Part shown: positions 1-18,215 of the stretch, in pieces
Numbering within the stretch: the stretch's first letter is position 1
Layout: each line of letters opens with the position of its first letter
Virus genome (UHGV): UHGV-0011358
Reading direction: 5' to 3' (one strand)
Source: a virus
Length of the DNA: 56,349 nucleotides
Notes under the pieces: model-generated
What the model saw: the letters and a program-made list of their open reading frames with translations, nothing else
The model's database searches: none
What the model was told of the DNA's origin: nothing
Made by a program: the position numbers and the translations under genes

Positions 1-2
1 GT

Positions 3-626
3 CACCCTAATCAGTCATATATAACCAGTAAAGAGAACATTAAAGATATACCCCCTTGTATCCCCCCAGAAGAAAAACATGTCAATCAGGATGGTGCAAA
101 CGAAGCGGCATTGCGTTGCCTGGCCTTCTACAACGACAAGGCAGGATGCAAATGTCGTGATGCGAAGCCATTCATCGAACTACTGACAGAAACAAAAACA
201 CGTAAAGCGTATACGGAGGATGAGATCACATTAGTGATTGAGTGGGCTTTAACGCAATGGCGTAGCCGTGGCGGAACACCTAAACCTATCAACATTTGCC
301 GGGTAACTAAATTTGACGGGTATCTTGCTGATGCTGAACAATGGCGCAATCTGTCAGTTACTGTAAACGCTGCCGATGTGGTAAATGAGTTTAACATCAC
401 GTTTGATGGCCTGTTGCCACCTGCTGAACTGGATCGGGATCTTGAACGTAAAATATATGCGTTCACTGACTACCTGAAAAACAAAAGCATTAACGGATTT
501 ATCGCCTACTTTGAAGCATTCAAGAGCAAGGCTTCAGACTTTTACTTCGGCGATGGCTTCACGGCGACACTTGATTTCCTGCTTAAACCAAAAACGCTAC
601 GCGATACACGCGCAGGCGCTCTTTGA
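3..626 (+). CDS. 5'-truncated ORF with no in-frame ATG; probably the C-terminal part of a replication initiator
   Basis: Frame open from position 3; track ORF starts at TTG 111 and the 171 aa contain no Met. An AT-rich stretch at 10-60 precedes it. Confidence 0.45.
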   Translation, partial: HPNQSYITSKENIKDIPPCIPPEEKHVNQDGANEAALRCLAFYNDKAGCKCRDAKPFIELLTETKTRKAYTEDEITLVIEWALTQWRSRGGTPKPINICRVTKFDGYLADAEQWRNLSVTVNAADVVNEFNITFDGLLPPAELDRDLERKIYAFTDYLKNKSINGFIAYFEAFKSKASDFYFGDGFTATLDFLLKPKTLRDTRAGAL

Positions 627-994
627 CCAACCACGATCCACAAAAACCCAAAATAACCCGCAAAACAAGCTCGCCAGCGAGATAAATCGCATGTGGTGCT
701 ACACTTGCTTACCTTTTTGCGATTAGCTCGTTATAGAGCGTTACAGAGAGGATTTCAAAAAATGGACGGTAAACACGTTTTTGCCCTGGTCTTTGCCATC
801 GCTGCGGCAATCGCTGTTAACGTCGCTTTGTTCGGCGGTTTGTTCCTTCTAGTCAATCCATAACCTACCCACCATTCTGTAAATCAAAAATTAGCCACCT
901 GAGAGCGTCTATAACGCAATAAGACACTGCAACCTATGCAAACGGGTTACGCGGTGGAATTTTGCGTTGTAGAGCGTTTTACGGAGAAAATACA

Positions 995-1735
995 ATGTCT
1001 GATTTAATGGTTTTTGATGTCGATAGCGAAGTATTAATGATTTCATCGCGTGAAATAGCAGAAGCAACAGGCAAGGATCATTCTTCTGTGGTTGTGCGTG
1101 ATATTAAAAACATGCTGATCGATTTAGGGTTTACTGAGCATGATTTTTATCCTGCAAAAATGCAGGATTATGAATTTATAGGGTTTTTGTTTAAGTACAA
1201 GCACTACAACGGTCGCAACGTCATTGATGAGGTTTTGCTAAATAAAGAGCTAACAATGTGCTTGATCACTGGCTATGACGTTAAGCAACGCATGAAGGTA
1301 ATTAAACGCGTTAAAGAGTTGGAGGAGGCGCAACACAAACTAGCTTTGCCGGATTTCACTGATCCGGTTGCGGCAGCCCGCGCATGGGCGGATGAGGTAG
1401 AGCAAAAATTATTAGTTAAGCAAGAAAATGAACGGCTTACACTGGTTAACAAACAGCTTGCGCCAAAAGCTGCTGTATGTGACGCGATAGTCAAAAACGA
1501 TATGCACCGCACGGCTTCAGAGGTAGCTAAACCGCTGGGAATGTCAGCCGTAAAATTAAACAGAAAACTTTCGGCGGTTGGTGTTTACGATCTTCGCTGT
1601 CGCCGTCGTGTATTCAGTCAGTGGTTTATTGATGAGGGCTACGGTGAAATGAGGGTAACTTACGATGGATATGAGCAGGCTGTATTCACTGCTAAAGGAC
1701 AAGTATGGATCACTGAGCTTTTAACTTGTAACTAA
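995..1735 (+). CDS. antirepressor-like protein (Rha-like N-terminus, KilA-C-like C-terminus)
   Basis: N-terminal SSREIAEATGKDHSSVVRDI resembles phage Rha regulatory proteins; ATG 995 preceded by GGAG. Confidence 0.55.
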   Translation: MSDLMVFDVDSEVLMISSREIAEATGKDHSSVVVRDIKNMLIDLGFTEHDFYPAKMQDYEFIGFLFKYKHYNGRNVIDEVLLNKELTMCLITGYDVKQRMKVIKRVKELEEAQHKLALPDFTDPVAAARAWADEVEQKLLVKQENERLTLVNKQLAPKAAVCDAIVKNDMHRTASEVAKPLGMSAVKLNRKLSAVGVYDLRCRRRVFSQWFIDEGYGEMRVTYDGYEQAVFTAKGQVWITELLTCN

Positions 1736-1769
1736 GTATACAATTTGTTATTCGTGAGGAAATGACACT

Positions 1770-2900
1770 ATGTCACAAAGAAAGATAAGCGATGAGCAAT
1801 TGATCGCTGAATATAACAACGGTTTAACGTACAAGCAGATCGCTGAAAAATATGGTATGTCAAAACGCAACGTCGAGCGGCTGGGCGCAAAGCTGGCGAA
1901 ACGCGGTTTATTATCAACGCGCCGCGCCCCTGGTTTTGGCGTCAATGGCGAGTCGTTACTGGTCGATAAGAACGGCAATGTGATCATGCGCTGGATTAAA
2001 ACAGCCCGTGACCGCGACGAAATGGAACAGCTAATGGAAGCAGCCCGCGACGCTTTCACGGATGAAATACCACGCGCGGAGGCTGTGCCAGTGCCTGAAA
2101 TTGATTTTCAAAAAAGCCTAGCCCTTTATCCGGTGTTTGATCTGCATATCGGGGCGCTTGCTCATAAAGCTGAATGCGGCGAGAGCTACGACACTGGGAT
2201 CGCTGAGCGCGTGTTAAATGACTTCTTTGACTACGCCGTGGGCGCTGCGCCGATGTCTGAAAAAGCCGTCTTACTTCTCGGTGGCGACCTGATTCACACT
2301 GACGGATTGTTACCAGTGACGCCATCAAGCAATCACGTTCTTGATTGCGATTCGCGCTATGCAAAACTTGTTTATGTAGCGATCCGGGCAGTACGGCGGG
2401 CAGTCGGGAAGATGTTGCTAAATCATAAGGATATTGAAATCCAGGTGTTATCAGGCAATCACGATCAGTCTGGTATGATTTGGCTACGTGCGGCGCTGGC
2501 GGCTTTTTACGAAGATGAACCGCGCGTGACGGTTGATGTGTCACCTGCTATCGTCCACCACACGCAGTACGGTAAAACATTTCTTGCTTACCACCACGGG
2601 CACACTATCAAAAAACCGGAAAATTTATTGGCTGCTTGCGTATCTGACTGGCGCGATGATTTCGGGAAGTCGAAATATGTTTACGTCCATGTCGGACATT
2701 TGCACCATAAATCAGTAACAGAATCATCTATAGGCATAGTTGAACACCACGGCACGTTAGCGGGCAAAGACGCTTATTCAACTAATGGAGGATGGAGATC
2801 GCAACGTTGCGCTGCGGTTATCCTTTACAGTCCTGATTATGGCGAAATTGGTCGCTTTGTATATAGGCCTGAAATGGTGGGGTGTCATGATGTGGGATGA
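1770..2900 (+). CDS. HTH domain fused to calcineurin-like metallophosphoesterase
   Basis: N-terminal HTH (LTYKQIAEKYGMSKRNVERL); phosphoesterase motifs DLHIG, GGDLIHTDG, GNHD, HHGH, GHLHH in canonical order. Confidence 0.55.
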   Translation: MSQRKISDEQLIAEYNNGLTYKQIAEKYGMSKRNVERLGAKLAKRGLLSTRRAPGFGVNGESLLVDKNGNVIMRWIKTARDRDEMEQLMEAARDAFTDEIPRAEAVPVPEIDFQKSLALYPVFDLHIGALAHKAECGESYDTGIAERVLNDFFDYAVGAAPMSEKAVLLLGGDLIHTDGLLPVTPSSNHVLDCDSRYAKLVYVAIRAVRRAVGKMLLNHKDIEIQVLSGNHDQSGMIWLRAALAAFYEDEPRVTVDVSPAIVHHTQYGKTFLAYHHGHTIKKPENLLAACVSDWRDDFGKSKYVYVHVGHLHHKSVTESSIGIVEHHGTLAGKDAYSTNGGWRSQRCAAVILYSPDYGEIGRFVYRPEMVGCHDVG

Positions 2901-3393
2901 TTTGTTTACATATAGCGACGGCGTTCTATATTGGTCTTGTAACCGTGCAAATAACAAAATAAAAGCAGGTAGCGTGGCTGGATGTAAACATTATCGCGGA
3001 TATTGGACTGTACGCGTTAATGGTATTTGTTGCACATGGCGTCACCGCATTATCTGGGAAATGTTTAACGGCCCTATTCCTGATGGAATGGAAATAGATC
3101 ACATAAATCATGTACCTGGTGACGATAGAATCGAAAACTTAAGGATGGTGACAAGGAAGGAGAATAACAGAAACAAAACAATGCCATCAAGTAATACTAG
3201 CGGATGCGTTGGCGTTACGTGGAACAAGAAAACCAATAAATGGCGTGCGCAAATAGGTATAAGGGGGTCTGATGGGAAAAAGAAAACAATATACGTTTAT
3301 TACGGTGACTCATTTGATGATGCCGTAAAAGCAAGAAAAGAAGCTGAAAGAATGTATAACTTTCATAGCAATCACGGTATTTCTTTACCCTGA
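2887..3393 (+). CDS. HNH homing endonuclease (HNH plus AP2-like domain)
   Basis: IDHINHVPGDDRIENLRMVTRKEN HNH motif and C-terminal AP2-like segment; paralog of three other ORFs in the window. Confidence 0.75.
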   Translation: MMWDDLFTYSDGVLYWSCNRANNKIKAGSVAGCKHYRGYWTVRVNGICCTWRHRIIWEMFNGPIPDGMEIDHINHVPGDDRIENLRMVTRKENNRNKTMPSSNTSGCVGVTWNKKTNKWRAQIGIRGSDGKKKTIYVYYGDSFDDAVKARKEAERMYNFHSNHGISLP

Positions 3394-3427
3394 ATTTTCC
3401 ATTTTGTAAACCGGAGGTAATAACATA

Positions 3428-4843
3428 ATGGTAACTGAACAAATAAACTCACTACGGCAGGAACGTGAAGCGTCAGTTATCGGCGGGCTGCTGTTAGGCG
3501 GCCTAACTCCTAACGCGCAAGATGTTCTCGCCACACTTGATCCTGAAGTGTTCACGATCCCGCTTTATAAACGTGCGTTTGAAGTTATCCGGGCGCAAGC
3601 CAGAAACAGAAATCTTATCGACGCCTTGCTGGTTGGTGATGAGATTGGTAATGAAAATTTCGTACCGCTAATGCAAACGGCGCGATCGTGCCCGTCTGCC
3701 GCAAACCTGAAAGGATACGCACAGCTACTACGTGAAGAGCACCAGCGGCGGCAGATGTTGGAACTCATCGACGATATGCGCTACAAGCTGGAAACGGGGA
3801 CGCTTGAAGTCGTCAAAGAGACGATGAAAGATTTTGATTCCCGGTACTCAAAATTAAAGGTAACGAAAGATAAGATCATTCCGGTTCTGTTGCGCGATGC
3901 GGTACAGGAATATACGGATGTTTTAAGCAAGCGCATGGAATGCGGTGTCAATTCTGACAACATCAAAACAGGTATAGAACCACTCGACGAAATGTTGGGC
4001 GGCATTAACGCTACTGATTTGGTACTTCTCGCCGGACGCCCTGGGTCTGGTAAATCTGCGTTGGCGCTGACAATTGCCCGCGCAGCCGCTGAACGCCCTT
4101 ACCCTGGCAGTAAAGAACAGCGGGTTGGCGTTTTGCTCTTCACGCTTGAAATGTCACTCGATCAGATGACTGAGCGGGCCATTGCTGGCGCTGGTAATTT
4201 ATCAACTGACTGCCTGCGCAATCCGGTAAAACTTGATGATGAGGGTTGGGCGCATGTAGGCCAGGGGATGAGCGCACTTGCTAATCTTGAGGTGTGGATC
4301 GTTGACGCGTCGCAGTTGACGGTTGAGGAAATACGCGCAACAACGGAACGCATGAAGCAGGAACACCCGAACCTGGGTATGGTAATGATTGACTACATCG
4401 GTCTAATGAAGCTGGCGAAGGCCGAACGTCACGATCTCGCTGTAGGGCAATTGTCATGGTCGTTGAAGATGATGGCGAAAGAATTGCGCGTACCAGTGTT
4501 GGCGCTGGCGCAGTTGTCACGCCGCGTTGAGGAACGACCGAATAAGCGTCCTAACAATTCAGATCTTCGTGATTCCGGGAACCTTGAGCAAGATGCTGAC
4601 AGGATCATCATGGTGTACCGCGATGGTTACTACGATGAGCAGTCTGTTGCCCGCGAATATATGGAAATCATTGTATCGAAAAACCGTCACGGGAAAACGG
4701 GGACTGTCTACCAGCGGTTTGACGATAACGGCAACATCATACCATGCGACCAGGGCAGGGCCGCCGCCGCGTGCATTCAATCTATGAATCACCGCACAAG
4801 CCGATTTAACCAACGAAACAACCAGGATAACGCATCTTATTAA
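3428..4843 (+). CDS. DnaB-family replicative helicase
   Basis: 471 aa; Walker A GRPGSGKSALAL and DnaB-like C-terminal motifs (QLSRRVEER, DSGNLEQDAD). Confidence 0.85.
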   Translation: MVTEQINSLRQEREASVIGGLLLGGLTPNAQDVLATLDPEVFTIPLYKRAFEVIRAQARNRNLIDALLVGDEIGNENFVPLMQTARSCPSAANLKGYAQLLREEHQRRQMLELIDDMRYKLETGTLEVVKETMKDFDSRYSKLKVTKDKIIPVLLRDAVQEYTDVLSKRMECGVNSDNIKTGIEPLDEMLGGINATDLVLLAGRPGSGKSALALTIARAAAERPYPGSKEQRVGVLLFTLEMSLDQMTERAIAGAGNLSTDCLRNPVKLDDEGWAHVGQGMSALANLEVWIVDASQLTVEEIRATTERMKQEHPNLGMVMIDYIGLMKLAKAERHDLAVGQLSWSLKMMAKELRVPVLALAQLSRRVEERPNKRPNNSDLRDSGNLEQDADRIIMVYRDGYYDEQSVAREYMEIIVSKNRHGKTGTVYQRFDDNGNIIPCDQGRAAAACIQSMNHRTSRFNQRNNQDNASY

Positions 4844-4922
4844 TCAATATGAGCGAACTGCTTACCGGAAAGTTTAGCGCTTTCTGGTGGCTGTTATCGC
4901 GTTTAAAACGAGGCTAAAAACA

Positions 4923-5480
4923 ATGAGCGCTGAACTTGAAACAAAAGTTATCAATGTCCTTGAACTTGATGGCATCGCAACAATGCACCAGTTACGCAAT
5001 AAAACGGGATTATTGGCTGGATATGACAAAGACGGATTGCTGCCTGAGACAATTAAACATTTAATAAAAAACGGTATCGTCGAGCGCGTATATACATGTT
5101 TTGGACGCCGCCGCCGTCTGCTGGGTTATCGTATTAAACAGTTATATGCTGAACGTCGTGGGCGTGTTGCGTCGTTATTTAGTGACTACAGCGTTAAAAA
5201 GCGTATGCGCGACATTAGCGCTGAAACGGGAATACCGTGGAATTATCTTTCTCGTACTATGCGTTTAATGGTGATTGATGAAACGCTTTGCGTTGATCCA
5301 AATAGACACGGCGTTAACTTTTACTCACTGTTTAAACCTGGGCGATTCGGTCACGCTAATGATTTGGCGTTTGACTTTGACAGCCGCCTGAACGAATACC
5401 GGAAAAATAACGGCCTGCTACCTGATAAACCAGTGTTTGAGATTGAAAAACTTAACGGTGAAACGGGGTTGGAATTATGA
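4923..5480 (+). CDS. hypothetical protein
   Basis: ORF in early-right operon; ATG 4923 chosen over the upstream GTG. Confidence 0.4.
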   Translation: MSAELETKVINVLELDGIATMHQLRNKTGLLAGYDKDGLLPETIKHLIKNGIVERVYTCFGRRRRLLGYRIKQLYAERRGRVASLFSDYSVKKRMRDISAETGIPWNYLSRTMRLMVIDETLCVDPNRHGVNFYSLFKPGRFGHANDLAFDFDSRLNEYRKNNGLLPDKPVFEIEKLNGETGLEL

Positions 5481-5683
5481 GACGGGTAATTTTTTATTCA
5501 GTTGAAACGTTTGTTGACGAATCTCACTTTAAATTCGCATGCGATCCTTGCGGCACAATGGTTTATACGCCGCCACTAATGCGCAAGTATAAGCACGTAA
5601 AATTTAACCGGGCTTTTGTGCCGATTCGTTACGCTTTGCAGGCGTTGCGCGGTGAATTACGAAACACAATGCGGATTGTGTAA
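5477..5683 (+). CDS. hypothetical protein
   Basis: 68 aa ORF; start overlaps the previous stop. Confidence 0.35.
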   Translation: MRRVIFYSVETFVDESHFKFACDPCGTMVYTPPLMRKYKHVKFNRAFVPIRYALQALRGELRNTMRIV

Positions 5684-5694
5684 GGGGGGGGGCT

Positions 5695-5892
5695 ATGGGC
5701 AAGGAATTGGATTTAACAGTGGAAGACTTAAGCACTATCGCGGAATACATGCGAGGCGATAATCCTGATAAGCCTGTCACGGTTGACATGAAATATTTAA
5801 AAGGCACTTTTATGACTTCTTCAAGATTGATAAGTCTTCAAATAATCATGAAAGCACGCAGCGAAAGCTATAAAGGGGTGAAGCATGAATAA
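5695..5892 (+). CDS. hypothetical protein
   Basis: 65 aa ORF with strong G-rich RBS upstream. Confidence 0.4.
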   Translation: MGKELDLTVEDLSTIAEYMRGDNPDKPVTVDMKYLKGTFMTSSRLISLQIIMKARSESYKGVKHE

Positions 5893-6445
5893 AGTGGTTA
5901 AATTCTCGTTTGATGATAAACAAGTGCAAACGGTTGTTTATGCAGATAAGCCCGCTTTTGTTGCAATGGATGTGGCGCGGGCGCTGGGGTACGCTACACC
6001 ACAAAAAGCCATCAAAGATCACTGTAAGTCATTGAAAAAAATAAAATGTTCTGAAATGGAACATTTGGGTTTTGCTCCAATCCCGCAAGGAATTACGCTA
6101 ATTCATGAACCGGATGTTTTTCGCTTAATTATGCATTCAAAACTTGAATCCGCCGAACGTTTCCAAGATTGGGTATTTGAGGAAGTGTTACCATCTATTC
6201 GTCAGAATGGCTATTACGGCGAAAAACCGAAAACACCGAATGACATGGCGGCGCACGTTAAAGGACTTATTTGTGACGGCGCAAGCGGTGAGCAAGTAAT
6301 GAATGCAGTAAGCAGTTTTGCCGCTGATAGCGAAACGGTCGGCAAGGTTGGTAGTCGCCTGTTAACGCAACGCAAGCGAGATAAAAAGCAGGTTAAGCAG
6401 TTAATAAAAGAAGTTAACGAGCGTTTTCAGTTGCAATTGTTTTGA
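5885..6445 (+). CDS. Bro-N domain protein (antirepressor-like)
   Basis: N-terminal FDDKQVQTVVYADKPAFVAMDVARALGY and later VFRLIMHSKLESAERFQDWVFEEVLPSIR fit the Bro-N pattern. Confidence 0.65.
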   Translation: MNKVVKFSFDDKQVQTVVYADKPAFVAMDVARALGYATPQKAIKDHCKSLKKIKCSEMEHLGFAPIPQGITLIHEPDVFRLIMHSKLESAERFQDWVFEEVLPSIRQNGYYGEKPKTPNDMAAHVKGLICDGASGEQVMNAVSSFAADSETVGKVGSRLLTQRKRDKKQVKQLIKEVNERFQLQLF

Positions 6446-6454
6446 GTTGATATC

Positions 6455-6886
6455 ATGCGGCAAATTAGATTTGAAATAGTAAACGACGCCGTAAAAGAAA
6501 ACGCTATCAGGCAGATAAGGGAGATCCAGCCTGATAGCAAAAGCCCGCTGATAATTACCATCCAGGAGAAAACACGATCACTGAGTCAAAACAGCCTTTT
6601 ATGGGCGCTATTAACAGACGTTAGCGATCAGGTTAATTGGTACGGTAAAAAGCTGTCACCGGAAGACTGGAAGGCGGTATTCACTGCCGGGCTTAAGAAA
6701 TATGGCGTTGTCCCTAATCTGGATAAATCAGGTTTTGTTGTGCTGGGTACGTCAACCAGCCGGATGAGTAAAGCAGAATTTAGCGAATTAATCGAACTGA
6801 TCTACTCGTTCGGCGCGGAACATGGTGTTCAGTGGTCTGGCGATACGAAGTTAAACGAGGAATTTATAAAACGCTGGGGGCGATAA
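6455..6886 (+). CDS. ninB: NinB-like recombination protein
   Basis: 143 aa with SQNSLLWALL motif and the size typical of lambda NinB. Confidence 0.7.
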   Translation: MRQIRFEIVNDAVKENAIRQIREIQPDSKSPLIITIQEKTRSLSQNSLLWALLTDVSDQVNWYGKKLSPEDWKAVFTAGLKKYGVVPNLDKSGFVVLGTSTSRMSKAEFSELIELIYSFGAEHGVQWSGDTKLNEEFIKRWGR

Positions 6887-7062
6887 TGGTGAGTTATTAC
6901 AGGGCCAAACCTACAGGCATTTTGTATAAGGTTGATGGCGAATACGTTTATTACTTTCACAATCAGGCGCGTGAGTGGCGATTGTGTCACGCGCACTTAC
7001 AGCACGAAATAGAAAATCACCCTGAATATTTTATCAAAGTTGACAATGTAACTGTGGCGTAA
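6886..7062 (+). CDS. hypothetical protein
   Basis: 58 aa ORF; ATG overlaps the ninB stop (TAATG). Confidence 0.4.
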   Translation: MVSYYRAKPTGILYKVDGEYVYYFHNQAREWRLCHAHLQHEIENHPEYFIKVDNVTVA

Positions 7063-7077
7063 TTGAGGATAAGCAAA

Positions 7078-7737
7078 ATGAGTGAATCAAGAGTAATTGG
7101 CATAATTCGTCATCGCACTAACCCTGATGTTTACCCATCGTTTGAGGTAACAACATGCCGCACGGAATACAATTTTGGATCATGCTATTTAGTTGGTGTC
7201 CGCGCTGATACTCGCGGCACTTATTCAGTTATGGCGTCAAGCTGGAAATTTGATAAATACGCTAATTTATCGAATAAGGATGATGACGGCATGAATAAAG
7301 AAAGTGAAATCATTGATGAATTAATCGAAGATGAACGCCATGATTGCGATAAACCGGAAGTTACAGAATGGAAGGCAGGAGAAAAGCCGCCGTGCGGAGT
7401 GTGGCTTGATTGCATTGGATCAAGAAGCGATATAGTGATTGATGTCGTTAAGTTTTTCTACCTGGGCGATAAGTGGTCTATTGCTCACAGTAAATTAGAA
7501 ACAGGTATTGAAACACCAATTGCATGGAAACAATACTCGTACCGCATTCACATTGACCCGAAAGAAAAAGCACTGGCGGAAATTGCGTTTGCGCTGGCTA
7601 CTAAGGTGATTGGTGAAGATGCGGCAAAAGAGATTGACTTTAACCATGACAATGATTTTTCGTGCGATTATCGCAATATGGCGCAAGCAATTATTGATGG
7701 ATGTATCGGGCACGTTGAATACACCGGGGGCAAATAA
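7078..7737 (+). CDS. hypothetical protein
   Basis: 219 aa ORF with GAGGA RBS; no recognised domain. Confidence 0.5.
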   Translation: MSESRVIGIIRHRTNPDVYPSFEVTTCRTEYNFGSCYLVGVRADTRGTYSVMASSWKFDKYANLSNKDDDGMNKESEIIDELIEDERHDCDKPEVTEWKAGEKPPCGVWLDCIGSRSDIVIDVVKFFYLGDKWSIAHSKLETGIETPIAWKQYSYRIHIDPKEKALAEIAFALATKVIGEDAAKEIDFNHDNDFSCDYRNMAQAIIDGCIGHVEYTGGK

Positions 7738-9370: not shown

Positions 9371-9394
9371 AGAAACGAGGCGTAAGCCTCGTTT
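9363..9394 (-). terminator. rho-independent terminator after tail fiber gene
   Basis: Hairpin AAACGAGGC-GTAA-GCCTCGTTT followed by a T-run on the minus strand. Confidence 0.5.
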
Positions 9395-9424
9395 CGCGCG
9401 GCGATGCTCTTCGCACATCACCTC

Positions 9425-12400
9425 TTATTCTTCGCTTCCTGTGAACTGACTGACAAGCGCTTCAAGTTTTGCGATCCGCTCATCCATTGCGGCAATATTA
9501 GCTTTCAGGCTGGCGTTTTCCTCTTCCAGTTCTGTGACGCGGTTATCTGTTTCTCGTGCCACCTGGACAAGCAAACCAGTCACCGCCGCATAGTCAACAT
9601 TAAGGTAGCGTGTTTCTTCTCGTAGCTCGTTGCCGTCAACGGTCGGCCCCTGCAATTCATTACCGTAACGAGTAAACGATCCTACGGCTTCCGGTAGCGC
9701 CTCCATTACTTCCTGTGCAATAACGCCAGCATAAGGAAGGCCGTTTTCCTTGAGCGTGTAGGTGTACCCGTTCATTTTGCGGATTGATTCAGTGGCTTCA
9801 CCTATAACCTGAATGTTATCTTTAAGGTCGCGGTCAGATGATTGGTGAAGTGTCTGGCATGTGATATTACCGCTAACATCAAACATTTGACCTGATGATG
9901 TTTTTTGTGCATAAAACAGGTATCCGGCAGATGTTCCAACCTCAAAAACGTTTTGTCGATCACTTGACCCCCAGACCCTGATGCTAACTGGTAGTTCTGA
10001 ATTACCTGAATTAAGTAAAGCAAAACGACTGCCCGTCCCTGTTTGTTTTCTAATTACTAAATCGGCAGTTGAATTAACCTCATTTTTGTTAACGGTTAGC
10101 GCCTGTGCTGTAGCACCGTTGACAGTACCGCTTAGTAGTTGCACTGCGCCATCATCGCCATTTAACAGCACTTGAGCGCTGCTTCTGTGGTTTTTCAGGA
10201 ACAACATTTTGCCTGTGCTTTCCGATGTACCTACCGACCACGCCGAATTGGTTTCAGTGCTATCAACACCACGCACAGTACAATTCATCGCGCTATAATC
10301 TGACGTACTTCCAAGCACATCAATTCGCCCACCACCAGATTTTACAGGAGTATCAGTGGTTAACGACCTTACGTTTACATCCTGATTCCTTCCTGAAACA
10401 ACAACCTGACTCCATGCCGACCAATTGCCATTTTCATAATAGCGAACGTATATTTGTTTTGTGTCTGTGCCAACAAGGGTTTGCAAGTTTGTATAATCTG
10501 AATCCGTGATCTTACGAATTGACTCTACACGAAGCAAAAAGTTGCCGCCTACGCCGTCAGGCTTATTGGTAATATTTGCACCGCCTCCGGCACTTTTGCA
10601 TTGATAGTATTTAACTGATCCTTTATCTGAGGCCTTAATGGTCAGATCATTAAGATCAATAGTCAGGTCGCCAATGTCTTCAGGCTCGATTGCTCCCGAT
10701 ATACCTGCGTTAAATGTGGCAAGGTCAGAAAATGTTGTTTTACCGCCTACCGTTAACCCGCTATCGAGTTTTGCTTGTGTAATTACTTTGCTGTTTTTTG
10801 AGTGGTCAGAAGAATTACCAAAATACAAATCACCGTCACCAGCTATACCTAGGTATTTTTGATCAACATCATCAACCTTAAACCCAATGGACAAGTTTTT
10901 AATTGTGTTGTTGCTCGTTAAAACCAAAGGCGTATGCTGAGATCCTTTGATGCTTACCGTAGTGTTATCGGAACTGGTGCTTGTGTTTGCAAATTCTGCG
11001 GTGGCTGCGCTGATTTTGTAAGTTATTTTTAGATTGCGGGCCTCAACCCTCCCGTCGTGGCGAACAATAAAATCACCACTTGATTCACCTTTTGTGTTTT
11101 TCGCCCTGATGTGGATTTCGCCAAGTGATTCGTTGTTTTCAGGCGACCAAACAACGCCGCGCTCGCTTCCGTCGTTGTTCATGAACCACAGATGAGCGGT
11201 TCCTTTTGCTGATTTTAGCCTGATAGATGGCATTTCTTTCAATATATCAAGATCACCAGACATAACATCGCCGGATTTTTTCACCTGCGCATCGTTCGTT
11301 ACGTTGCCAAGTCCAACATCCGATTTCGACGGCTTGTTTTGGGTTCCGTATAGCTCATTAATGGCATAAGTGCCGCTGTTGAGTCCAGTATCGTTACCAG
11401 CGAAAATCTTGACCCTGGCCTTTTCGTATTCGATATTAATCGCTGACCACGTATCACCGCACCGAGAGAATACACTAGAACCGTGGTTATAATGGGTCGC
11501 CGTGCTTCCGGTAGGCTTATCGGCACGCCAGAAATGACCGCCTTTGTCACGCAGTGCTTTTAATAGTTCTGTATTGCTCATCTTGCCGTTTGTTGCTATC
11601 CCGCTACCGCCAAGACCGAAAGCGCCTGTAAGCATAGCATTAGAAAGGCCCAAATCTGCCTTGCTGGGTTTGTTTACCTGGTCGTAAATCCTTGCTGCTG
11701 GGCTTTCAATATATCCAGCGGGTGCGTCGGCTTGCTCAACAAATCCTTCAGGAATGTATAATTCCGTGTTGCCAGTCTGCGCCAGCACCGCTACTTTTGT
11801 GTTTTTAATATAAGATCGCTGGTAGCACCAGACCTCGATATAGCCGTCACCTTTAACCAGGCCGTAACACATTTGACCATTATTGGGAAGGTTTGGTGAA
11901 CCGAGTCGGCGAATACTTAAAAATTTAGATATATTTTCACTGGTTACTTCGCCTGTGTCGTTAAGACCTCGAGCGGAGATCTCTATAAAGTCAATATTCC
12001 CGTAACTTAAACCGTAGCCACCGCCATTTGTAACCATTAGCGTTAAGTGGCAGTCTGATGACTTTGGATCGCTAAGTTTAGCAATCTTAACGTAAGCGCC
12101 ATTACCGCTAGTTTTAACAGGCCAAGCACATTGGACCATTGGGCTGGTAAGCCTTCCCATTTGATTCAGATATTCTTGCGCCCTGTTCTCTGATGTTTTG
12201 GCGTTGGTTTCGCTTGTTTTCGCTGCCGTCTCACTTGCCTTAGCGTTGGTTTCTGATGTTTTCGCTGCCGTGGCGGATTTTGCAGCCGCTGTTTTTGACG
12301 CTTCTGCTGCGTTTTTGTCGGATCCTGTTTTTTGAGCGTTGGCGGTTGATTTGGCTGTCTCTGCGCGAATGTTGGTAAGAAGCTGATCCAACTGACCTTC

Positions 12401-12745
12401 GCCGCCAAAATCCTCCCACCACTCGACAGCGGCGGCGATCTCTGTTTCCTTGCCCTGGTAGTAACGCAGGGTTTCAGCCACATCCTGAGCAAGCCCATCA
12501 ACTGAGATCGAGTCAGATAGCAGGATGCTGAATTTTGTCCCGGCAGGGATGGCGGGGTTAGCCGCTGGCGTCACTGACAGTTCAGTGCCGCTTTTAATTT
12601 CTGTGATGGTAAAGATCTGTACCGGATTGCCAACAGCAATGAGCGTGCAGCCTACACGAATGAGAGAAAGCGGCGCGGAGAAGTTTGTGCCCGTGCCTGT
12701 AACAGTATTGCCGCTAATGGCAATTGTTCCAGTTGTGTAAATCAT
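9425..12745 (-). CDS. tail fiber / tailspike with C-terminal S74-type intramolecular chaperone domain
   Basis: 1106 aa; Ala/Lys/Thr-rich repeat region; C-terminus DLKDNIQ...GVIAQEV...YAAVTGLLVQ resembles the self-cleaving chaperone domain. Confidence 0.8.
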   Translation of the reverse strand: MIYTTGTIAISGNTVTGTGTNFSAPLSLIRVGCTLIAVGNPVQIFTITEIKSGTELSVTPAANPAIPAGTKFSILLSDSISVDGLAQDVAETLRYYQGKETEIAAAVEWWEDFGGEGQLDQLLTNIRAETAKSTANAQKTGSDKNAAEASKTAAAKSATAAKTSETNAKASETAAKTSETNAKTSENRAQEYLNQMGRLTSPMVQCAWPVKTSGNGAYVKIAKLSDPKSSDCHLTLMVTNGGGYGLSYGNIDFIEISARGLNDTGEVTSENISKFLSIRRLGSPNLPNNGQMCYGLVKGDGYIEVWCYQRSYIKNTKVAVLAQTGNTELYIPEGFVEQADAPAGYIESPAARIYDQVNKPSKADLGLSNAMLTGAFGLGGSGIATNGKMSNTELLKALRDKGGHFWRADKPTGSTATHYNHGSSVFSRCGDTWSAINIEYEKARVKIFAGNDTGLNSGTYAINELYGTQNKPSKSDVGLGNVTNDAQVKKSGDVMSGDLDILKEMPSIRLKSAKGTAHLWFMNNDGSERGVVWSPENNESLGEIHIRAKNTKGESSGDFIVRHDGRVEARNLKITYKISAATAEFANTSTSSDNTTVSIKGSQHTPLVLTSNNTIKNLSIGFKVDDVDQKYLGIAGDGDLYFGNSSDHSKNSKVITQAKLDSGLTVGGKTTFSDLATFNAGISGAIEPEDIGDLTIDLNDLTIKASDKGSVKYYQCKSAGGGANITNKPDGVGGNFLLRVESIRKITDSDYTNLQTLVGTDTKQIYVRYYENGNWSAWSQVVVSGRNQDVNVRSLTTDTPVKSGGGRIDVLGSTSDYSAMNCTVRGVDSTETNSAWSVGTSESTGKMLFLKNHRSSAQVLLNGDDGAVQLLSGTVNGATAQALTVNKNEVNSTADLVIRKQTGTGSRFALLNSGNSELPVSIRVWGSSDRQNVFEVGTSAGYLFYAQKTSSGQMFDVSGNITCQTLHQSSDRDLKDNIQVIGEATESIRKMNGYTYTLKENGLPYAGVIAQEVMEALPEAVGSFTRYGNELQGPTVDGNELREETRYLNVDYAAVTGLLVQVARETDNRVTELEEENASLKANIAAMDERIAKLEALVSQFTGSEE

Positions 12746-12922
12746 CTCGATGACTCCATTTTGTTAATTAACGGAATAATTCTACCATTTTATGATCTGT
12801 GTTGCATTTTCTGCTTACACAAAATGTATTTGTTGATTTATATCAATATACGAAGTGTTGTTTTGTCGGATATTCAAGACACCGGATGAACCGGACGAGC
12901 TAACAAGAACGAGGATTAAAAA

Positions 12923-13171: not shown

Positions 13172-13178
13172 AAGAAAA

Positions 13179-13200
13179 CCCCGCGCGAAGCGGGGTTTTT
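13179..13200 (+). terminator. rho-independent terminator (bidirectional)
   Basis: CCCCGC-GCGAA-GCGGGG hairpin followed by TTTTT. Confidence 0.6.
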
Positions 13201-13202
13201 GT

Positions 13203-16200
13203 TTATCCTGAGAATGAACCAGAACCGCGCGACACTATGACTGTCGGCGAATTTATATAAGCCCCCTTGTCATTTTGAGCAGATACCTTAATTTTAACTG
13301 TAACGCCCCTGCTGGTTACTGCTGCTGAATGCATAACAAGGCGCTCCGTGCCATCCAGTGCTAAACCTTTTGATGAACCGCCAATTGTTATTGTGCAACC
13401 ACCAAAACCCTTAACGTTAGCCATAACGCAGATATGTCGGCTATACGCTGCGTCAGATGTGTCATTGTATGTTATTACTTTTTCTAACGCCCCATCCCTT
13501 AACGTGCTAACGTCAGAACCTGTGTACATGTTTGCAACATCACCGATAAAGGTTTTCGCCTCAAGTGAACCGGTAAACTTGCCGCTGTCTGCATGTATTT
13601 CACCCCTTACAACAACGTTGTTAAATTCTGATGCGCCGCTTTGTGTTATCCTCCAACCATTGGAACCGGGGACGAAGTTTGCTGATTTAATTTCATTGAC
13701 AATTTTAGCCATAGTAATGGAGGCATCTGCAATTTTAGCTGTCCCTATTGATGCATCCTTAATAAATGCCTCTTTCACATACATTGCGCCGTTAGTGACA
13801 TAGAAGGGCGATGTATATGCGCCGTTTGCCGCCGTCATTAACATAAAGCGATCAACAAGGAAAATACACTGCGACTGAAAGTTAGTGCCGTCACCAGTAA
13901 GGCCAAGCGACATACCTGTAGCGTATTTTACGCCATTGCTATCTGTGGCGAGCTTGATTGAATATGTCGCATCAACATTACCCCTAAAGTCGGTTAACGC
14001 TTTAGATGTCGTCTCTATTGCCGTCTTGTTCCCGTTAACGGTCACTGTTAGCTGATCAATTTTCGTTGACAACGCCTCGTCTGCCGTAGCCATTGTCTGC
14101 GACCATTCTGTAATACTTGAGTTTACTGATTCGAAAGACGCTGAGATCTGGCTAAATTTTTCCGCGCTTGATTCCTCATGCGTAGAGAGCGCCGTCGACA
14201 CTTCAGATACTTTTGAGTTGATCGTACTGGTAAGCGATGCGCTAAGGCCGCTTATTGCGTCCGCGCGTGCTTTTTTTTCGTCGGCGATGGCTTTGTCCAT
14301 CCTGGTGACGTTGCTTGTCACTTTATTATCAAGCGTGCTGACACTTGCGCTAACTTCGCTGATAGCTTGTCCTCTGGCGCTTGTTTCGTCAGCAATTACC
14401 TGATCAAGACGGTTTACGCTTGCTTCAGTCTTCTTATCAAGATTAGTGATCGATGCGTTTACACCGCTAATGGCTTCAGCCGTTGCTTTTTTCTCTTCAG
14501 CGATAACGTTGTCAATACGGTCAATTTTCGCGTTGGTTTCTCTGATTCCTTTCTTGTATTGGGCTGAAAGAGTAACACGCGTGTTGGTTTGAGCGATTGA
14601 GTTATTGATAAGTGCAATAGATGCGTTTTGCAGGCTTGCTTTTGCCTGATTTATTTCGTCGCTGTTTTTGCCAACATTATTTTCAACAGTGCCAAGATTT
14701 GCGCTGAGGCCTGATATTGCCTGAGCGCGGGCGCTTGATTCATCGGCAATTGCCTGATCAAGACGCTTAACGCTGGCGTTTGTGCTGTTCTCAAGCGTTG
14801 TTAAGTCTGCTTTAACCTCTGTTATTGCGTCGCTTCTTGCCTTCGTTTCGTCTGATATTGCTTTATCAAGGCGGGAAACGCTGGCATCTGTTTTCTTATC
14901 AAGGCTGTCTATTGATGCCTTCACGCCGCTAACGGCCTGTGCGCGGGCACTGGCCTCGTCAGCGATTGCCTGATCCAGGCGTTTAACGCTGGCGTCAGTT
15001 TTCTTATCAAGTGCCGAGATACTTGCGTTAACGTCACTGACCGCCTGTGTGCGGGCGTTCGTTTCATCTGCAATAGCCTGATCAAGCCTATTGACGCTGG
15101 CATCCGTTTTCTTGTCGAGATTGCTTATTGAGGCGTTCACACCGTTAATAGCTTCAGCGCGGGCACTAGCCTCGTCAGCCACTGCGCGTTCCACACTGGA
15201 GATCTGACCTTTAAGGTTGGAATCCATCGTGTTCATTTCTGCCGTGATGGTTTTCAGTGATTCAGCCGTTGCTTTTTTCTCTTCAGCGATAACGTTGTCA
15301 ATACGGTCAATTTCCGCTTTCGTTTCCGTTCTGCCTTTTTTGTACTGGGCGGTAAGGGTAACGCGCGTGTTTGTCTGTGCAAGCGAGTTGTTGATAAGCG
15401 CCAATGACGCGTTTTGCAGGCTTGCTTTTGCTTGCGCCAGTTCGCTGCCAACTTTTTCGCTGGACACTTCTAATAGGTCAATCCTGGACTCATGCTGACC
15501 AATATCATCGGCGTTTTCCTTAACTTTTTTGTAAAGATCTTCCGTTTCTTTTTTAAGTGTATCGGTGTCAGCTTTTATTGTTCCCGTTTCTGTGATCAGG
15601 TTGTCAGTGTCAGTCCTTAAATCTTCAGTTACGTTCGTAAGGTTATCAGTTGTAGTTTTGAGGTTGTCAGTAGCTGTTTTCAGTTCTTCCGCAACACCTT
15701 CGATAACATCGGTGCGGTCGCCTAGATCTTTGATGTCACCAATCATTTCCTTGAACTGTTCCGACCCCATGACATCCTTCATCACGTAGTCACTGATTTC
15801 ATCAAAATTCTCTGTCGGCTTACCTGACGCCTCTACAAAGTCAGACACGCCAAAAGCATTGCGTGTGCGCACGTAAACGTAATAAGTATGGCCCGTGTTC
15901 ATTCCGCCGAACGTCCACTGATAACCACGTCCGGTATATTGTGCATTAGTGGGGACTAATGCCGGATTAGTGATTTGTGTTTCGCCAGCAAAATAGAATT
16001 CATAGCTTGTATCGCTGGTCAGAGTTGTTTTGCTGATTGGGTATACAGTAGCCTGAAATACGCCTGGTATCCAGTTAACACCAATTGGTTTTGAAGGTGC
16101 ACCAATAACGAGATCAACGATAGATTCCGCGCCTTTCATACCGGTATCATTGCGGGCGCGAACGCCTAAAGAGTATTGACCGCAATTCAGGCCATTAAAA

Positions 16201-18215
16201 TCATACCGGAATTCGGTCGTCTCATAACTGGCGACAACTTTGCTGTCTTCGTTATAAACACGTAATTCAAAGGTCAGGCGGTGAGTTGTGGTCTGCGTCA
16301 TCCACGACGCGGAGCACTGAACGGTTTCGGAACCAACATTCATTACCTTGAGGTTTTCAATGTTAGGAACACGGAAATGATTCAGCGTGTCGTTGTTGAT
16401 TTCGAAGACTGCGCCTTCATCAACTACGGCCTGTTTGTTAGGGTCGTGCTGTGCGGCTTCGATAGTGTATACGCTGTTATTTTCTGTTTCTGCTACGCTG
16501 GTGATCCTACATAAAACGGGTTTTGCTGCTTCAGTCGATACAGCAAAAACAGTGCCATTGCGAATCCATGCCGGGGCCGCAGCAAGGGTAATATTGTTTC
16601 CATTAACTCCGGTGATCTGGTGTTTTTTAAATTTACCATCGCTATCAAGTAAGCTGATGGTGTCACCAGCCGCGATATATTCAGAATCAACCTTGTCGAC
16701 CGTTATCACTTTGCCATTGTTCGCCACGATACGACCGCCTAAGCGAGCGCCTGCGCGGTTATTGTCGAGGATCTCGATGATATCCCCTGGTGTAAAGTGA
16801 ATGGCGTCACGGGCCATTTTAAACGTGAATTTTGACGGCTCGCGTTTTGCTGTTTCGATCAGCCATTTACCAGCGCGATAAGCCTGTCCGCGAGACGTGC
16901 ACCCGAACGCCTCTAGCGTGGTTTCGTTGTAGCCGTCGCGGGCGATTAGTTCATCGTCAGAAACGTATTCTTTTGACTGTTCCCAACCGTTACCCGGATC
17001 GGTCCAGGATACAATCACGGCGTTGTAGCACTCCGCGCGGGCAAGGCTCGAACGGGTGAATGCACCATCTACGACATTTGCGTTCGTGATAGTTGCAATC
17101 GGATCTTGTGGCGCATCAATCATCACTGTAAGACGTTGCCCGTCCCATAACGCAATACCACGGAACATGCCAGCAATGTTATCCAGTAGGTCGCGGGCGC
17201 TCATTTGCTCCGTAATGTAAGCGTTAAGCGTCATGCGAGGTTCAAGGCCACCATAGCCATCATCAACCAACTGATCGCAGTATTGGGAGAGCACGTACAA
17301 AGCGCCATCATCAACATCAATGTAACCAGCATGTCGAGCAAGCCCGAAGCGCTCGTTTTTAACCAGATACCGGAAAATCCACGCAGGGTTATTGGTGTAC
17401 GCTTTTTTGAATCCACCAAGCCATAAGCCCGAATATGTGCGCGTTTCTGTGTTGTAGTTATCAGGCACGTCAACAATCAGGCCGCGAAGATGATAGGTGC
17501 GGGTAGGTGTATCAGTGTACTGGTCATGGTCAATCACAGCGCCAGCTACAGCGGTATGAGGATAAGACAGATTATCGTCTATGATTTCGCTGTAACTACT
17601 CCACCGCGTATCATTCTGCAATAGATCGCTGTTGCTGTCTGCTGTTATGCGACGAATGCGAATATCAAACGGTTTTTCATCCGGCGCTTTGATAATGTGA
17701 GCTTCCAGATATTCACCGCTTTGTTTACCGGGGCCAATGTGTATATCTTTAATCAGCGACCATGTAGAAGATGATGACGGTTTAACGTCAACCATCAACA
17801 TAACGGATGTATTGTATTGATTGCCCTTGTCGTCTGACTGAACGAGAGCGTCAACACCAAGATTCAACCTGACGCGGGTAACGTTTGGATCTGAAACAGT
17901 CCTGATTATTGGCGTGTCGTGAGTTACCTTTGCGTTGACAATAACGGTTGACTCGATGGCATTAAAACCATTAATCGGCGATTGGTCAGCCGTGCCGTTT
18001 CGCCAGGCTATACTAATCCCCGGTATTGATGTATTCCCGTTTGCGTCAGTAACAGGCGTGTCATTAAGCATCACGTTATTCAGTGGTGCTTTCTGGTTTA
18101 CCGGACCATATATCGGCCCCTCACTGAGAATATCTAAGACACGATAAAACTGTTTATGATACAGGTTATCGTTCAATAATGTTGGTGTTTTGGCTTTGCC
18201 GCCGCCGCTACTCAT
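13203..18215 (-). CDS. J: central tail fiber / host specificity protein J
   Basis: 1670 aa; N-terminal two thirds align by eye with lambda J; has an added coiled-coil repeat insertion. Confidence 0.9.
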   Translation of the reverse strand: MSSGGGKAKTPTLLNDNLYHKQFYRVLDILSEGPIYGPVNQKAPLNNVMLNDTPVTDANGNTSIPGISIAWRNGTADQSPINGFNAIESTVIVNAKVTHDTPIIRTVSDPNVTRVRLNLGVDALVQSDDKGNQYNTSVMLMVDVKPSSSSTWSLIKDIHIGPGKQSGEYLEAHIIKAPDEKPFDIRIRRITADSNSDLLQNDTRWSSYSEIIDDNLSYPHTAVAGAVIDHDQYTDTPTRTYHLRGLIVDVPDNYNTETRTYSGLWLGGFKKAYTNNPAWIFRYLVKNERFGLARHAGYIDVDDGALYVLSQYCDQLVDDGYGGLEPRMTLNAYITEQMSARDLLDNIAGMFRGIALWDGQRLTVMIDAPQDPIATITNANVVDGAFTRSSLARAECYNAVIVSWTDPGNGWEQSKEYVSDDELIARDGYNETTLEAFGCTSRGQAYRAGKWLIETAKREPSKFTFKMARDAIHFTPGDIIEILDNNRAGARLGGRIVANNGKVITVDKVDSEYIAAGDTISLLDSDGKFKKHQITGVNGNNITLAAAPAWIRNGTVFAVSTEAAKPVLCRITSVAETENNSVYTIEAAQHDPNKQAVVDEGAVFEINNDTLNHFRVPNIENLKVMNVGSETVQCSASWMTQTTTHRLTFELRVYNEDSKVVASYETTEFRYDFNGLNCGQYSLGVRARNDTGMKGAESIVDLVIGAPSKPIGVNWIPGVFQATVYPISKTTLTSDTSYEFYFAGETQITNPALVPTNAQYTGRGYQWTFGGMNTGHTYYVYVRTRNAFGVSDFVEASGKPTENFDEISDYVMKDVMGSEQFKEMIGDIKDLGDRTDVIEGVAEELKTATDNLKTTTDNLTNVTEDLRTDTDNLITETGTIKADTDTLKKETEDLYKKVKENADDIGQHESRIDLLEVSSEKVGSELAQAKASLQNASLALINNSLAQTNTRVTLTAQYKKGRTETKAEIDRIDNVIAEEKKATAESLKTITAEMNTMDSNLKGQISSVERAVADEASARAEAINGVNASISNLDKKTDASVNRLDQAIADETNARTQAVSDVNASISALDKKTDASVKRLDQAIADEASARAQAVSGVKASIDSLDKKTDASVSRLDKAISDETKARSDAITEVKADLTTLENSTNASVKRLDQAIADESSARAQAISGLSANLGTVENNVGKNSDEINQAKASLQNASIALINNSIAQTNTRVTLSAQYKKGIRETNAKIDRIDNVIAEEKKATAEAISGVNASITNLDKKTEASVNRLDQVIADETSARGQAISEVSASVSTLDNKVTSNVTRMDKAIADEKKARADAISGLSASLTSTINSKVSEVSTALSTHEESSAEKFSQISASFESVNSSITEWSQTMATADEALSTKIDQLTVTVNGNKTAIETTSKALTDFRGNVDATYSIKLATDSNGVKYATGMSLGLTGDGTNFQSQCIFLVDRFMLMTAANGAYTSPFYVTNGAMYVKEAFIKDASIGTAKIADASITMAKIVNEIKSANFVPGSNGWRITQSGASEFNNVVVRGEIHADSGKFTGSLEAKTFIGDVANMYTGSDVSTLRDGALEKVITYNDTSDAAYSRHICVMANVKGFGGCTITIGGSSKGLALDGTERLVMHSAAVTSRGVTVKIKVSAQNDKGAYINSPTVIVSRGSGSFSG

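Follow-up and report, generated by a model that had tools for sequence, protein, structure and literature searches.

We asked what is encoded by the 1106-amino-acid open reading frame that lies on the minus strand next to the tail tip gene of a virus recovered as a metagenome scaffold, and what its repetitive N-proximal stretch and its C-terminal domain might contribute to it. The window, meaning the whole stretch of DNA that was analysed, is 56,349 nucleotides long. An initial annotation had proposed a tail fibre with a low-complexity Ala/Lys/Thr repeat and a C-terminal self-cleaving chaperone domain. The explanation that we favour, with a probability of roughly 0.82, is that the product is a modular fibre consisting of an anchor, a coiled-coil stalk, a shaft, a tip and a self-cleaving S74 chaperone.

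A side tail fibre gene and its neighbourhood

The frame, taken from the list of open reading frames, begins with ATG and is bounded by recognizable signals on both sides:

12754..12757, minus strand: GGAG ribosome-binding site, read from the sequence, 8 nt upstream of the fibre ATG
9425..12745, minus strand: side tail fibre gene, encoding a 118.1 kDa precursor, with its stop codon at 9425-9427
9372..9395, minus strand: hairpin resembling a terminator, with a T-run after it, 30 nt past the fibre stop codon, located by a consensus scan

The gene adjoins one for a GpJ-type tip protein. Downstream of it come the hairpin, at the same relative position as an annotated terminator in phage mEp013, and then an integrase gene; no same-strand open reading frame of 60 aa or more is listed in the interval that separates this gene from the fibre stop. 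This gene order, in which J is followed by a small opposite-strand ORF, the fibre gene and a terminator-like hairpin, is shared with mEp013, mEp010, mEp021 and E. coli prophages. Two minus-strand ORFs (12166-12501 and 12240-12422) are Arg/Lys/Gln-rich readings of the repeat tract in other frames, and we judged them to be artefacts. We also considered a neighbouring lipoprotein ORF as a counterpart of the Llp protein of DT57C and BF23, and rejected it, as just 14 signal-peptide residues align (E 0.01).

Tail-fibre families of the PHROG collection match the protein with E-values down to 5e-289, which bears out the original call of a tail fibre. At the nucleotide level, the gene is 89.7% identical to an E. 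coli prophage gene annotated as ‘pyocin knob domain-containing S74 family peptidase’, and close E. coli prophage homologues, 87-88% identical, carry the same name, which comes from PGAP; an NCBIfam search of the fibre protein, which bears on the R-pyocin-type knob implied by that name, returned no match. The fibre of E. coli strain 190 is 87% identical over its full length, the prophage copies differing from ours by ordinary allelic divergence, and an identical protein is already present in public databases (P0001). The protein thus belongs to a common kind of E. coli phage side tail fibre for which annotation already exists. We take the gene to be, in all probability, the side (lateral) tail fibre gene of a temperate, mEp013/mEp021-like E. 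coli siphophage.

Anchor, shaft and tip

By homology, the fibre is probably a trimer, and it would be built as a modular homotrimer in which an anchor is followed by a helical region, a beta-rich shaft, a distal tip and the S74 chaperone. Three of these modules are delimited as follows:

12449..12745, minus strand: N-terminal virion-anchor module, aa 1-99 (boundary approximate), from similarity to depolymerase N-termini and the mEp013 fibre
10280..12157, minus strand: fibre shaft of beta-rich globular domains, aa 197-822, from similarity to the Ayreon and GEC_vB_N5 fibres and to phrog_24369
9839..10279, minus strand: distal tip of the mature fibre, aa 823-969, from phrog_4563 (which covers aa 823-1089), with a conserved W925-G926...R930...E935 motif

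[quoted passage not shown] The anchor (aa 1 to about 100) would dock the fibre on the tail tip. The similarity to 7VYV and 7LZJ also raises the prospect that we are dealing with a tailspike that depolymerises capsule or O-antigen rather than with a fibre. We consider this highly improbable: similarity to the PDB entries ends at about aa 237, spanning the anchor and the helix bundle only, no beta-helix, pectate-lyase or hydrolase Pfam family matches the fibre, and from there on the matches are to side or long tail fibres. DpK2 (7LZJ) and Depo32 (7VYV/7VZ3), which come from Klebsiella Webervirus (KP36-like) phages, have a homologous anchor and an Ala/Ser heptad helical bundle, but they continue into a right-handed beta-helix enzyme and lack an S74 domain, whereas the fibre studied here continues into a shaft. 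The K1 lyase of PMC8822698 is a different, 651-aa enzyme and is irrelevant to 7VYV.

As regards the shaft, phrog_24369 matches aa 129-815 of the side tail fibre. An AlphaFold2 (AF2) model of the full-length monomer, built from a 79-sequence alignment, has a mean pLDDT of 54.9 and a pTM of 0.27; the best-predicted shaft blocks are aa 205-350, 420-580 and 690-780. A Foldseek search of the PDB with this full-length model gave matches such as OspA at TM scores of at most 0.11, which we treated as meaningless. The distal tip is presumed, by analogy with T5 pb1, to be the receptor-binding end.

The S74 chaperone and its predicted release

The initial annotation had read the last 130 residues as an S74-type intramolecular chaperone and suggested a profile search; absence of the catalytic Ser/Lys dyad would have refuted it. 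The features that emerged are these:

9428..9838, minus strand: Peptidase S74 intramolecular chaperone, aa 970-1106 (137 aa, 15.1 kDa), from Pfam, PDB profile, AF2 and Foldseek results
9836..9838, minus strand: codon of Ser970, predicted nucleophile and scissile residue, from the SDRDLK motif and the homologue alignment
9821..9823, minus strand: codon of Lys975, predicted general base (Ser+5), from conservation and the Ser1264/Lys1269 pair of T5 pb1

Pfam PF13884 (Peptidase_S74) matches aa 970-1021 with positions 1-57 of its 58-position profile, scoring 50.2 bits (E 3.1e-13) where the gathering cut-off is 22 bits. Counted from Ser970 to residue 1106, the domain is 137 aa long, close to the size first proposed, and it runs up to the fibre stop codon. 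When a profile of the domain was compared with the PDB, it matched S16 gp37 (6F45; E 2e-22), the intramolecular chaperone domain of MyRF (7DC3; 7e-16), 8JOV and GA-1 3GUD, the last of these starting at SDERHK. Neither that profile search nor a single-sequence phmmer search of the PDB found T5 pb1 or K1F endosialidase, and the latter was recovered by fold search only.

An AF2 model of aa 940-1106 (pLDDT 91, pTM 0.74) has the alpha/beta, beta-hairpin and long-helix layout expected of S74 chaperones, with strands at aa 1021-1034 and 1040-1050 forming the hairpin and the long helix at aa 1052-1102. In a Foldseek search with this model, all nine significant matches (E ≤0.001) and a tenth (3GUD) were intramolecular chaperone domains. 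Probability was 1.00 to MyRF (7DC3), K1F endosialidase (3GW6) and GA-1 (3GUD), and nothing else was significant. The solved chaperones 3GW6, 3GUD, 6F45 and 7DC3 share the fold and the S-D-x-x-x-K start with the fibre, but they are only 12-25% identical to it in sequence and differ in the length of the beta-hairpin and in the upstream domain. Fibres of the T5 pb1 type are likewise long side fibres with a C-terminal S74 chaperone, of about 135 residues, and a Ser/Lys(+5) dyad. Together, the Pfam match, the dyad and a fold like that of solved chaperone domains support the S74 assignment.

The dyad is present as Ser970/Lys975. SDRDLK at aa 970-975 aligns with SDERHK, which begins at residue 1 of 3GUD, and with SDRRIK of 6F45. 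The Ser/Lys motif is kept in 120/120 close homologues; among 138 diverse sequences (the query itself and 137 representatives taken from a library that had been clustered at 50% identity), Ser970 is kept in 136 and Lys975 in all 138. In T5 pb1, the Ser1264/Lys1269 dyad serves cleavage, and 133 residues are released after trimerisation (PMC4690869).

Transferred from T5 pb1, the mechanism would run as follows. Three copies of the chaperone would assemble through a central helix bundle and beta-hairpin ‘tentacles’, and the assembled chaperone would nucleate folding of the trimeric tip upstream. After assembly, Ser970, activated by Lys975, would cut the Ser969-Ser970 bond, releasing the 15-kDa chaperone and leaving a 103-kDa mature fibre; the products predicted from the sequence are 103.0 and 15.1 kDa. 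As the chaperone would be built in and then released, no separate tail-fibre assembly protein would be needed.

It could also be that the domain folds as a chaperone without being cleaved, and remains attached, capping the C-terminus or contributing to a receptor-binding tip. In T5, an upstream ‘folding sensor’ is formed by Arg1250/Asp1239 from the neighbouring subunit; in the fibre no counterpart of these two residues could be aligned, which leaves this reading some room. Upstream of the S74 domain, R930 is conserved in 48/58 sequences and E935 in 47/58, in a spacing and order unlike those of the T5 sensor. Retention of the domain nevertheless seems improbable to us, given that the dyad and the flanking SD..LK.NI residues are intact and almost universally conserved, and that in T5 pb1 the processed fibre alone competes with phage for infection, the chaperone covering the tip (PMC4690869).

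The heptad-repeat tract and the mosaic seam

With release of the chaperone as the preferred reading of the C-terminus, we turn to the repeats behind the anchor:

12158..12370, minus strand: heptad-repeat tract, aa 126-196, from lag-7 periodicity; Ala predominates at a and Ser at d over some 10 heptads
12197..12265, minus strand: two AKTSETNAK copies, aa 161-169 and 175-183, from a motif search

The AKTSETNAK repeat, originally placed at around 12200-12400, thus occurs twice, inside a longer tract. The composition of its 71 residues is biased (A 19, T 11, K 9, S 8, N 7, E 7), and when the tract is compared with itself, identical residues make up 44% of positions at a lag of 7, 37% at 14 and 32% at 21; most other lags give about 10%. 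The 28 matches counted at lag 7 exceed the number in every one of 100,000 shuffles that preserve the composition of the tract, which give 8.5 +/- 2.6 and at most 21. Successive a positions read ISTAAAAAAAM and d positions ENDSSSSSSY, so that the core is Ala/Ser, not the canonical Leu/Ile/Val. In the DNA of the tract, Tandem Repeats Finder reported a weak 10-nt row (12194-12224) but no period of 21 nt; the repeat is detected at the protein level only.

Two accounts of such a tract can be given. It could be a flexible linker of low complexity, intrinsically disordered, that joins the anchor to the shaft, as the ‘flexible spacer’ of the initial annotation implied, or it could be a rod-like trimeric coiled coil. 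The biased composition fits a linker, as does the AF2 monomer, in which pLDDT is about 40-50 over the tract and below 50 over aa 133-161 and 182-203. That same model, however, places helices at aa 118-137 and 144-196, and a continuous helix speaks against a disordered linker, as does a strict seven-residue repeat whose a and d positions hold small residues. The homologous region of DpK2 is described as an ‘extended triple helical bundle’ in a C1 cryo-EM map, and that of Depo32 as a ‘helical-bundle domain’ by cryo-EM. Neither bundle was modelled at high resolution and the symmetry of DpK2 breaks there, which speaks for a linker to some extent and also indicates, by analogy, that the bundle has some mobility relative to the fibre body.

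Length and function argue further against disorder. Tract length is constant in 14/14 inspected homologues carrying the fibre’s N-terminus, chosen as one per length class among 89. In DT57C LtfA, a one-residue deletion (A198) in the analogous SETNAA tract abolishes plaques on O-antigen hosts, and its repair restores adsorption, such that loss of a single residue destroys fibre function. We therefore regard the disordered linker as unlikely, and low-complexity disorder as not the best reading of the tract. The heptads, the helix prediction and the DpK2 bundle point to a rod-like trimeric coiled coil as the most likely structure; its oligomeric state is suggested by homologues, in which a three-helix bundle is known at low resolution. 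The helical region, ending in about ten Ala/Ser-core heptads, would then form a parallel three-stranded stalk, some 10 nm in length, which keeps the fibre away from the tail. ‘Spacer’ may accordingly be a fair description, while ‘flexible’ sits poorly with the heptads, the helix prediction and the bundle.

Nor is the tract unusual, as had been supposed: it is common to lambdoid fibres, T5-like fibres and Klebsiella depolymerases, and at least six further PHROG tail families match this stretch alone. The mEp013 fibre (849 aa) is 81% identical to ours over aa 1-200 and 70% over aa 907-1106, but its middle is unrelated. The lambdoid Stf of Escherichia phage Ayreon, encoded at the same position after the J gene, is 74% identical over aa 128-1105, comprising tract, shaft, tip and chaperone, but its N-terminus is of the lambda Stf type (PF08400 in related proteins), in place of our mEp-type anchor, and its Ala/Ser-rich region is longer. 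The lambdoid S74 fibres also include the E. coli prophage ‘prophage tail fiber N-terminal domain-containing protein / peptidase S74’. The long tail fibre (LTF) of the T5-like Salmonella phage GEC_vB_N5 is 63% identical over aa 128-880, heptad tract included. Before aa 128 there is no similarity to the T5-like LTF: the T5-type N-terminal attachment region (about 50-80 aa) binds the p132 collar, whereas ours is of the mEp/Webervirus type. At the other end, T5-like similarity stops at aa 880 and mEp013 similarity resumes at aa 907, the T5-like distal tip being unlike aa 880-969 of our fibre.

At the DNA level, the fibre gene resembles that of mEp013 as far as gene nt 524 and those of Ayreon and GEC_vB_N5 from gene nt 436 onwards, so that the mosaic junction (gene nt 436-524) falls inside the heptad tract. 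Lambdoid and T5-like fibres carry nearly the same tract after N-terminal anchors of different types; in DNA it is 80-88% identical across the mEp-like, lambdoid and T5-like groups, and the likeness extends to the Klebsiella Webervirus proteins at the protein level. The tract is thus probably the conserved seam at which phage groups exchange anchors and shafts. A bolder version, which we put forward tentatively and at slightly less than even odds, is that it acts as a shared ‘universal adapter’, a preferred seam for homologous recombination that joins any anchor in register to any shaft. If the coiled coil tolerates any in-register fusion, this would explain why the tract sequence in particular is conserved, and if the adapter reading is true, the breakpoints at gene nt 436-524 are a direct footprint of such an exchange.

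Self-cleaving S74 tail fibres such as T5 pb1 and K1F endosialidase are already known, being well characterised and automatically named by the NCBI pipeline, and the finding has little significance beyond correct annotation. In practical terms, the mature fibre should end at Ser969, so that studies of receptor binding and engineering projects are best done with the processed form, or with the chaperone retained while the protein is expressed. The heptad tract, for its part, would offer a natural, register-preserving splice point for anchor and shaft swaps in host-range engineering.

The fibre gene and its phage setting

We examined the side tail fibre gene, for which the initial annotation had correctly given the coordinates, together with the genes upstream of it:

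9425-12745, minus strand: fibre ORF (ORF list), ATG start, 1106 aa
12923-13171, plus strand: lipoprotein ORF, 82 aa, with signal peptide and lipobox (..ALTGC); phrog_12984 'lipoprotein', E 4e-27
13174-13200: perfect GC-rich hairpin with T-runs on both strands, bidirectional terminator-like, flanked by the 3' ends of the J-type gene and of the lipoprotein ORF, which converge on it
13203-18215, minus strand: GpJ-type tip protein, 1670 aa; J domains aa 88-811, Phage_Tail_Tip domain aa 1399-1546

A GGAG ribosome-binding site, read directly in the sequence, stands 8 nt upstream of the fibre ATG. PHROG tail fibre profiles cover the full protein (phrog_24369 at aa 129-815, E 5e-289; phrog_6578 at aa 696-1098), bearing out its earlier description as a tail fibre. 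An identical protein is already public as P0001, on a 56.5-kb ENA metagenome scaffold (ERZ28615892) with the same neighbours, to which the window corresponds, and 169 E. coli RefSeq genomes carry the gene at 80% coverage or more. The best of these copies, at 89.7% DNA identity, is annotated as "pyocin knob domain-containing S74 family peptidase", a name that automated pipelines have already given to close homologues. The fibre, its repeat and its chaperone are all of known kinds.

The fibre gene lies between the tip protein gene and, downstream, a tyrosine integrase gene. Phage replication and accessory genes occupy the plus strand at 1-7737, among them those for a DnaB-like helicase (3428-4843) and a Bro-N protein (5885-6445). 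As these and the fibre's neighbours are all phage genes, the window is a near-complete temperate phage genome rather than a prophage flanked by host DNA; we detected no tRNA gene in it. The position of the hairpin, together with the opposite-strand lipoprotein ORF between the tip protein gene and the fibre, indicates that the fibre gene is separated from the late tail operon. We found no sigma-70-like promoter for the fibre in 12746-12922.

The same arrangement of J, small opposite-strand ORF and fibre occurs in phage mEp013, and the lipoprotein ORF is kept at this place there and in E. coli prophages. It had no Pfam or NCBIfam match and no real sequence similarity to the Llp proteins of DT57C and BF23, and, judging by where it lies, it may act in receptor blocking or superinfection exclusion (Llp/Cor-like). 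Between its J and Phage_Tail_Tip domains the tip protein carries an insertion of ~550 aa in which a 36-residue unit (..DKKTDASV.RLDQAIADE..AR.QA.S.V.ASI..L) recurs in tandem, with a DNA period of 108 (especially at 14877-15113). By appearance, these repeats could extend the central fibre as a long coiled coil or fibrous element.

The C-terminal S74 chaperone and its predicted cleavage

The C-terminus had been proposed to be an S74-type chaperone, and the profile search suggested at the time gave a Pfam Peptidase_S74 match at aa 970-1021 of 50.2 bits (E 3.1e-13; cut-off 22 bits). Absence of a Ser/Lys dyad had been named as the observation that would count against this assignment; the fibre has both residues, Ser970 and Lys975. 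Two motifs are relevant here:

9821-9838, minus strand: SDRDLK, aa 970-975; Ser970 stands 137 residues from the C-terminus
9944-9972, minus strand: W925-G926-x-x-x-R930-x-x-V933-x-E935, aa 925-935, ~40 residues upstream of the predicted cleavage site

The S-D-x-x-L-K motif is kept in all 120 of the 120 closest homologues. A search with aa 823-1106 gave 5342 matches (E <= 0.001) in a protein library clustered at 50% identity. In an alignment of the query with 137 of the best 150 matches (n=138, query included), position 970 was Ser in 136, Asp971 was kept in 137 and Lys975 in all 138. A profile built from 28 aligned relatives matched four solved structures: S16 gp37 (6F45, E 1.9e-22), the MyRF ICA domain (7DC3, E 7e-16), a phage tail fibre (8JOV) and the GA-1 neck appendage chaperone (3GUD), whose crystal construct starts at SDERHK, aligned with SDRDLK of the fibre. 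The AlphaFold2 model of aa 940-1106 was confident (pLDDT 91, pTM 0.74): alongside a small alpha/beta unit, aa 1021-1050 form a long beta-hairpin and aa 1052-1102 a C-terminal helix of 50 residues. [quoted passage not shown] Foldseek against the PDB returned only intramolecular chaperone domains as significant matches: 7DC3, 3GW6 (K1F endosialidase) and 3GUD, each at probability 1.00. Profile match, dyad and fold thus uphold the earlier assignment, and by every testable feature the fibre is a member of Peptidase S74.

In T5 pb1, Lys1269 activates Ser1264; cleavage of the Thr1263-Ser1264 bond awaits a correctly folded trimer and frees 133 residues (PMC4690869). By analogy, the fibre would be cut between Ser969 and Ser970, with computed products of 103.0 kDa and 15.1 kDa, and we take its mode of working to be that of T5 pb1 and the other fibres with an S74 end. 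The ORF list has no same-strand ORF of at least 60 aa from the fibre stop to the integrase gene, and a terminator-like hairpin follows the stop (9395-9372), which fits a fibre carrying its own chaperone. The upstream Arg/Asp folding sensor of T5 (Arg1250/Asp1239) was not confirmed in the fibre alignment. The W925...E935 motif, kept in roughly 80-90% of diverse relatives (R930 in 48/58, E935 in 47/58), is a candidate equivalent judged from sequence, with different spacing and order.

The Ala/Ser heptad tract

The repeat noted initially is real, with two AKTSETNAK copies at aa 161-169 and 175-183 (nt 12197-12265) inside a longer tract:

12158-12370, minus strand: 71-residue tract, aa 126-196, almost all A, T, K, S, N and E

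Within the tract, residues spaced seven apart are identical in 44% of cases, with 37% for lag 14 and 32% for lag 21; most other lags give ~10%. The 28 matches at lag 7 were reached in none of 100,000 composition-preserving shuffles (8.5 +/- 2.6). The tract is therefore a strict heptad repeat; counted in sevens from residue 126, its a positions read I,S,T,A,A,A,A,A,A,A,M and its d positions E,N,D,S,S,S,S,S,S,Y.

The repeat had been called unusual, which is incorrect. Two Klebsiella phage depolymerases, Depo32 (7VYV/7VZ3) and DpK2 (7LZJ), have N-termini that align with fibre aa 3-237 (E 5e-37), and this alignment extends through the repeat; several further PHROG tail families match aa ~125-198 only; and a near-identical AAKTSETNAK.SE.AAK.SETNAK.SEN.A.EYL occurs in the lambdoid Ayreon Stf and in the long tail fibre of GEC_vB_N5, a T5-like Salmonella phage. 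Despite the anchor shared with the Klebsiella enzymes, we rejected a depolymerase identity for the fibre.

The tract had also been interpreted as a flexible spacer, and this is probably wrong. Helices at 118-137 and 144-196 were predicted even in a poor full-length AlphaFold2 monomer, and tract length was the same in 14 of 14 inspected homologues with this N-terminus (each length class among 89 represented once). The homologous region of DpK2 was seen by cryo-EM as an extended triple helical bundle, not modellable owing to a symmetry break, and that of Depo32 is described as a helical-bundle domain. In the T5-like phage DT57C, the spontaneous loss of a single residue, A198, prevents plaque formation on O-antigen hosts, and its repair restores adsorption. 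A198 falls within the analogous ...SELNAKISETNA-A198-G... Ala/Ser heptad tract of LtfA (ltfA aa 181-200) in our placement, a point apparently not made in the paper. Such sensitivity fits a register-dependent coiled coil rather than a floppy spacer. Taken with the heptad period, helix prediction, DpK2 homologue and constant length, it leads us to interpret the tract as a coiled-coil stalk of three strands with an Ala/Ser core and an estimated length of ~10 nm (71 residues x ~0.15 nm per residue). A hinge may lie where stalk and shaft meet.

Mosaic structure of the fibre

Only the two ends of the protein, aa 1-200 (81%) and aa 907-1106 (70%), match the mEp013 fibre; the middle does not. Ayreon Stf, with a different, lambda Stf-type N-terminus (PF08400 in the related 1252-aa E. 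coli proteins), matches aa 128-1105 (74%), and the T5-like long tail fibre, whose N-terminus is different again, matches aa 128-880 (63%). At its N-terminus the protein is not of the T5 type. At the DNA level, the resemblance to mEp013 runs out at gene nt 524 and that to Ayreon and GEC_vB_N5 sets in at nt 436, placing the anchor/shaft junction inside the heptad tract, at aa 146-175. A second junction lies at ~aa 880-907, immediately before the module of tip and chaperone. The heptad tract may be a conserved in-register recombination seam common to several phage groups, consistent with the long-held picture of tail-fibre genes as mosaic.
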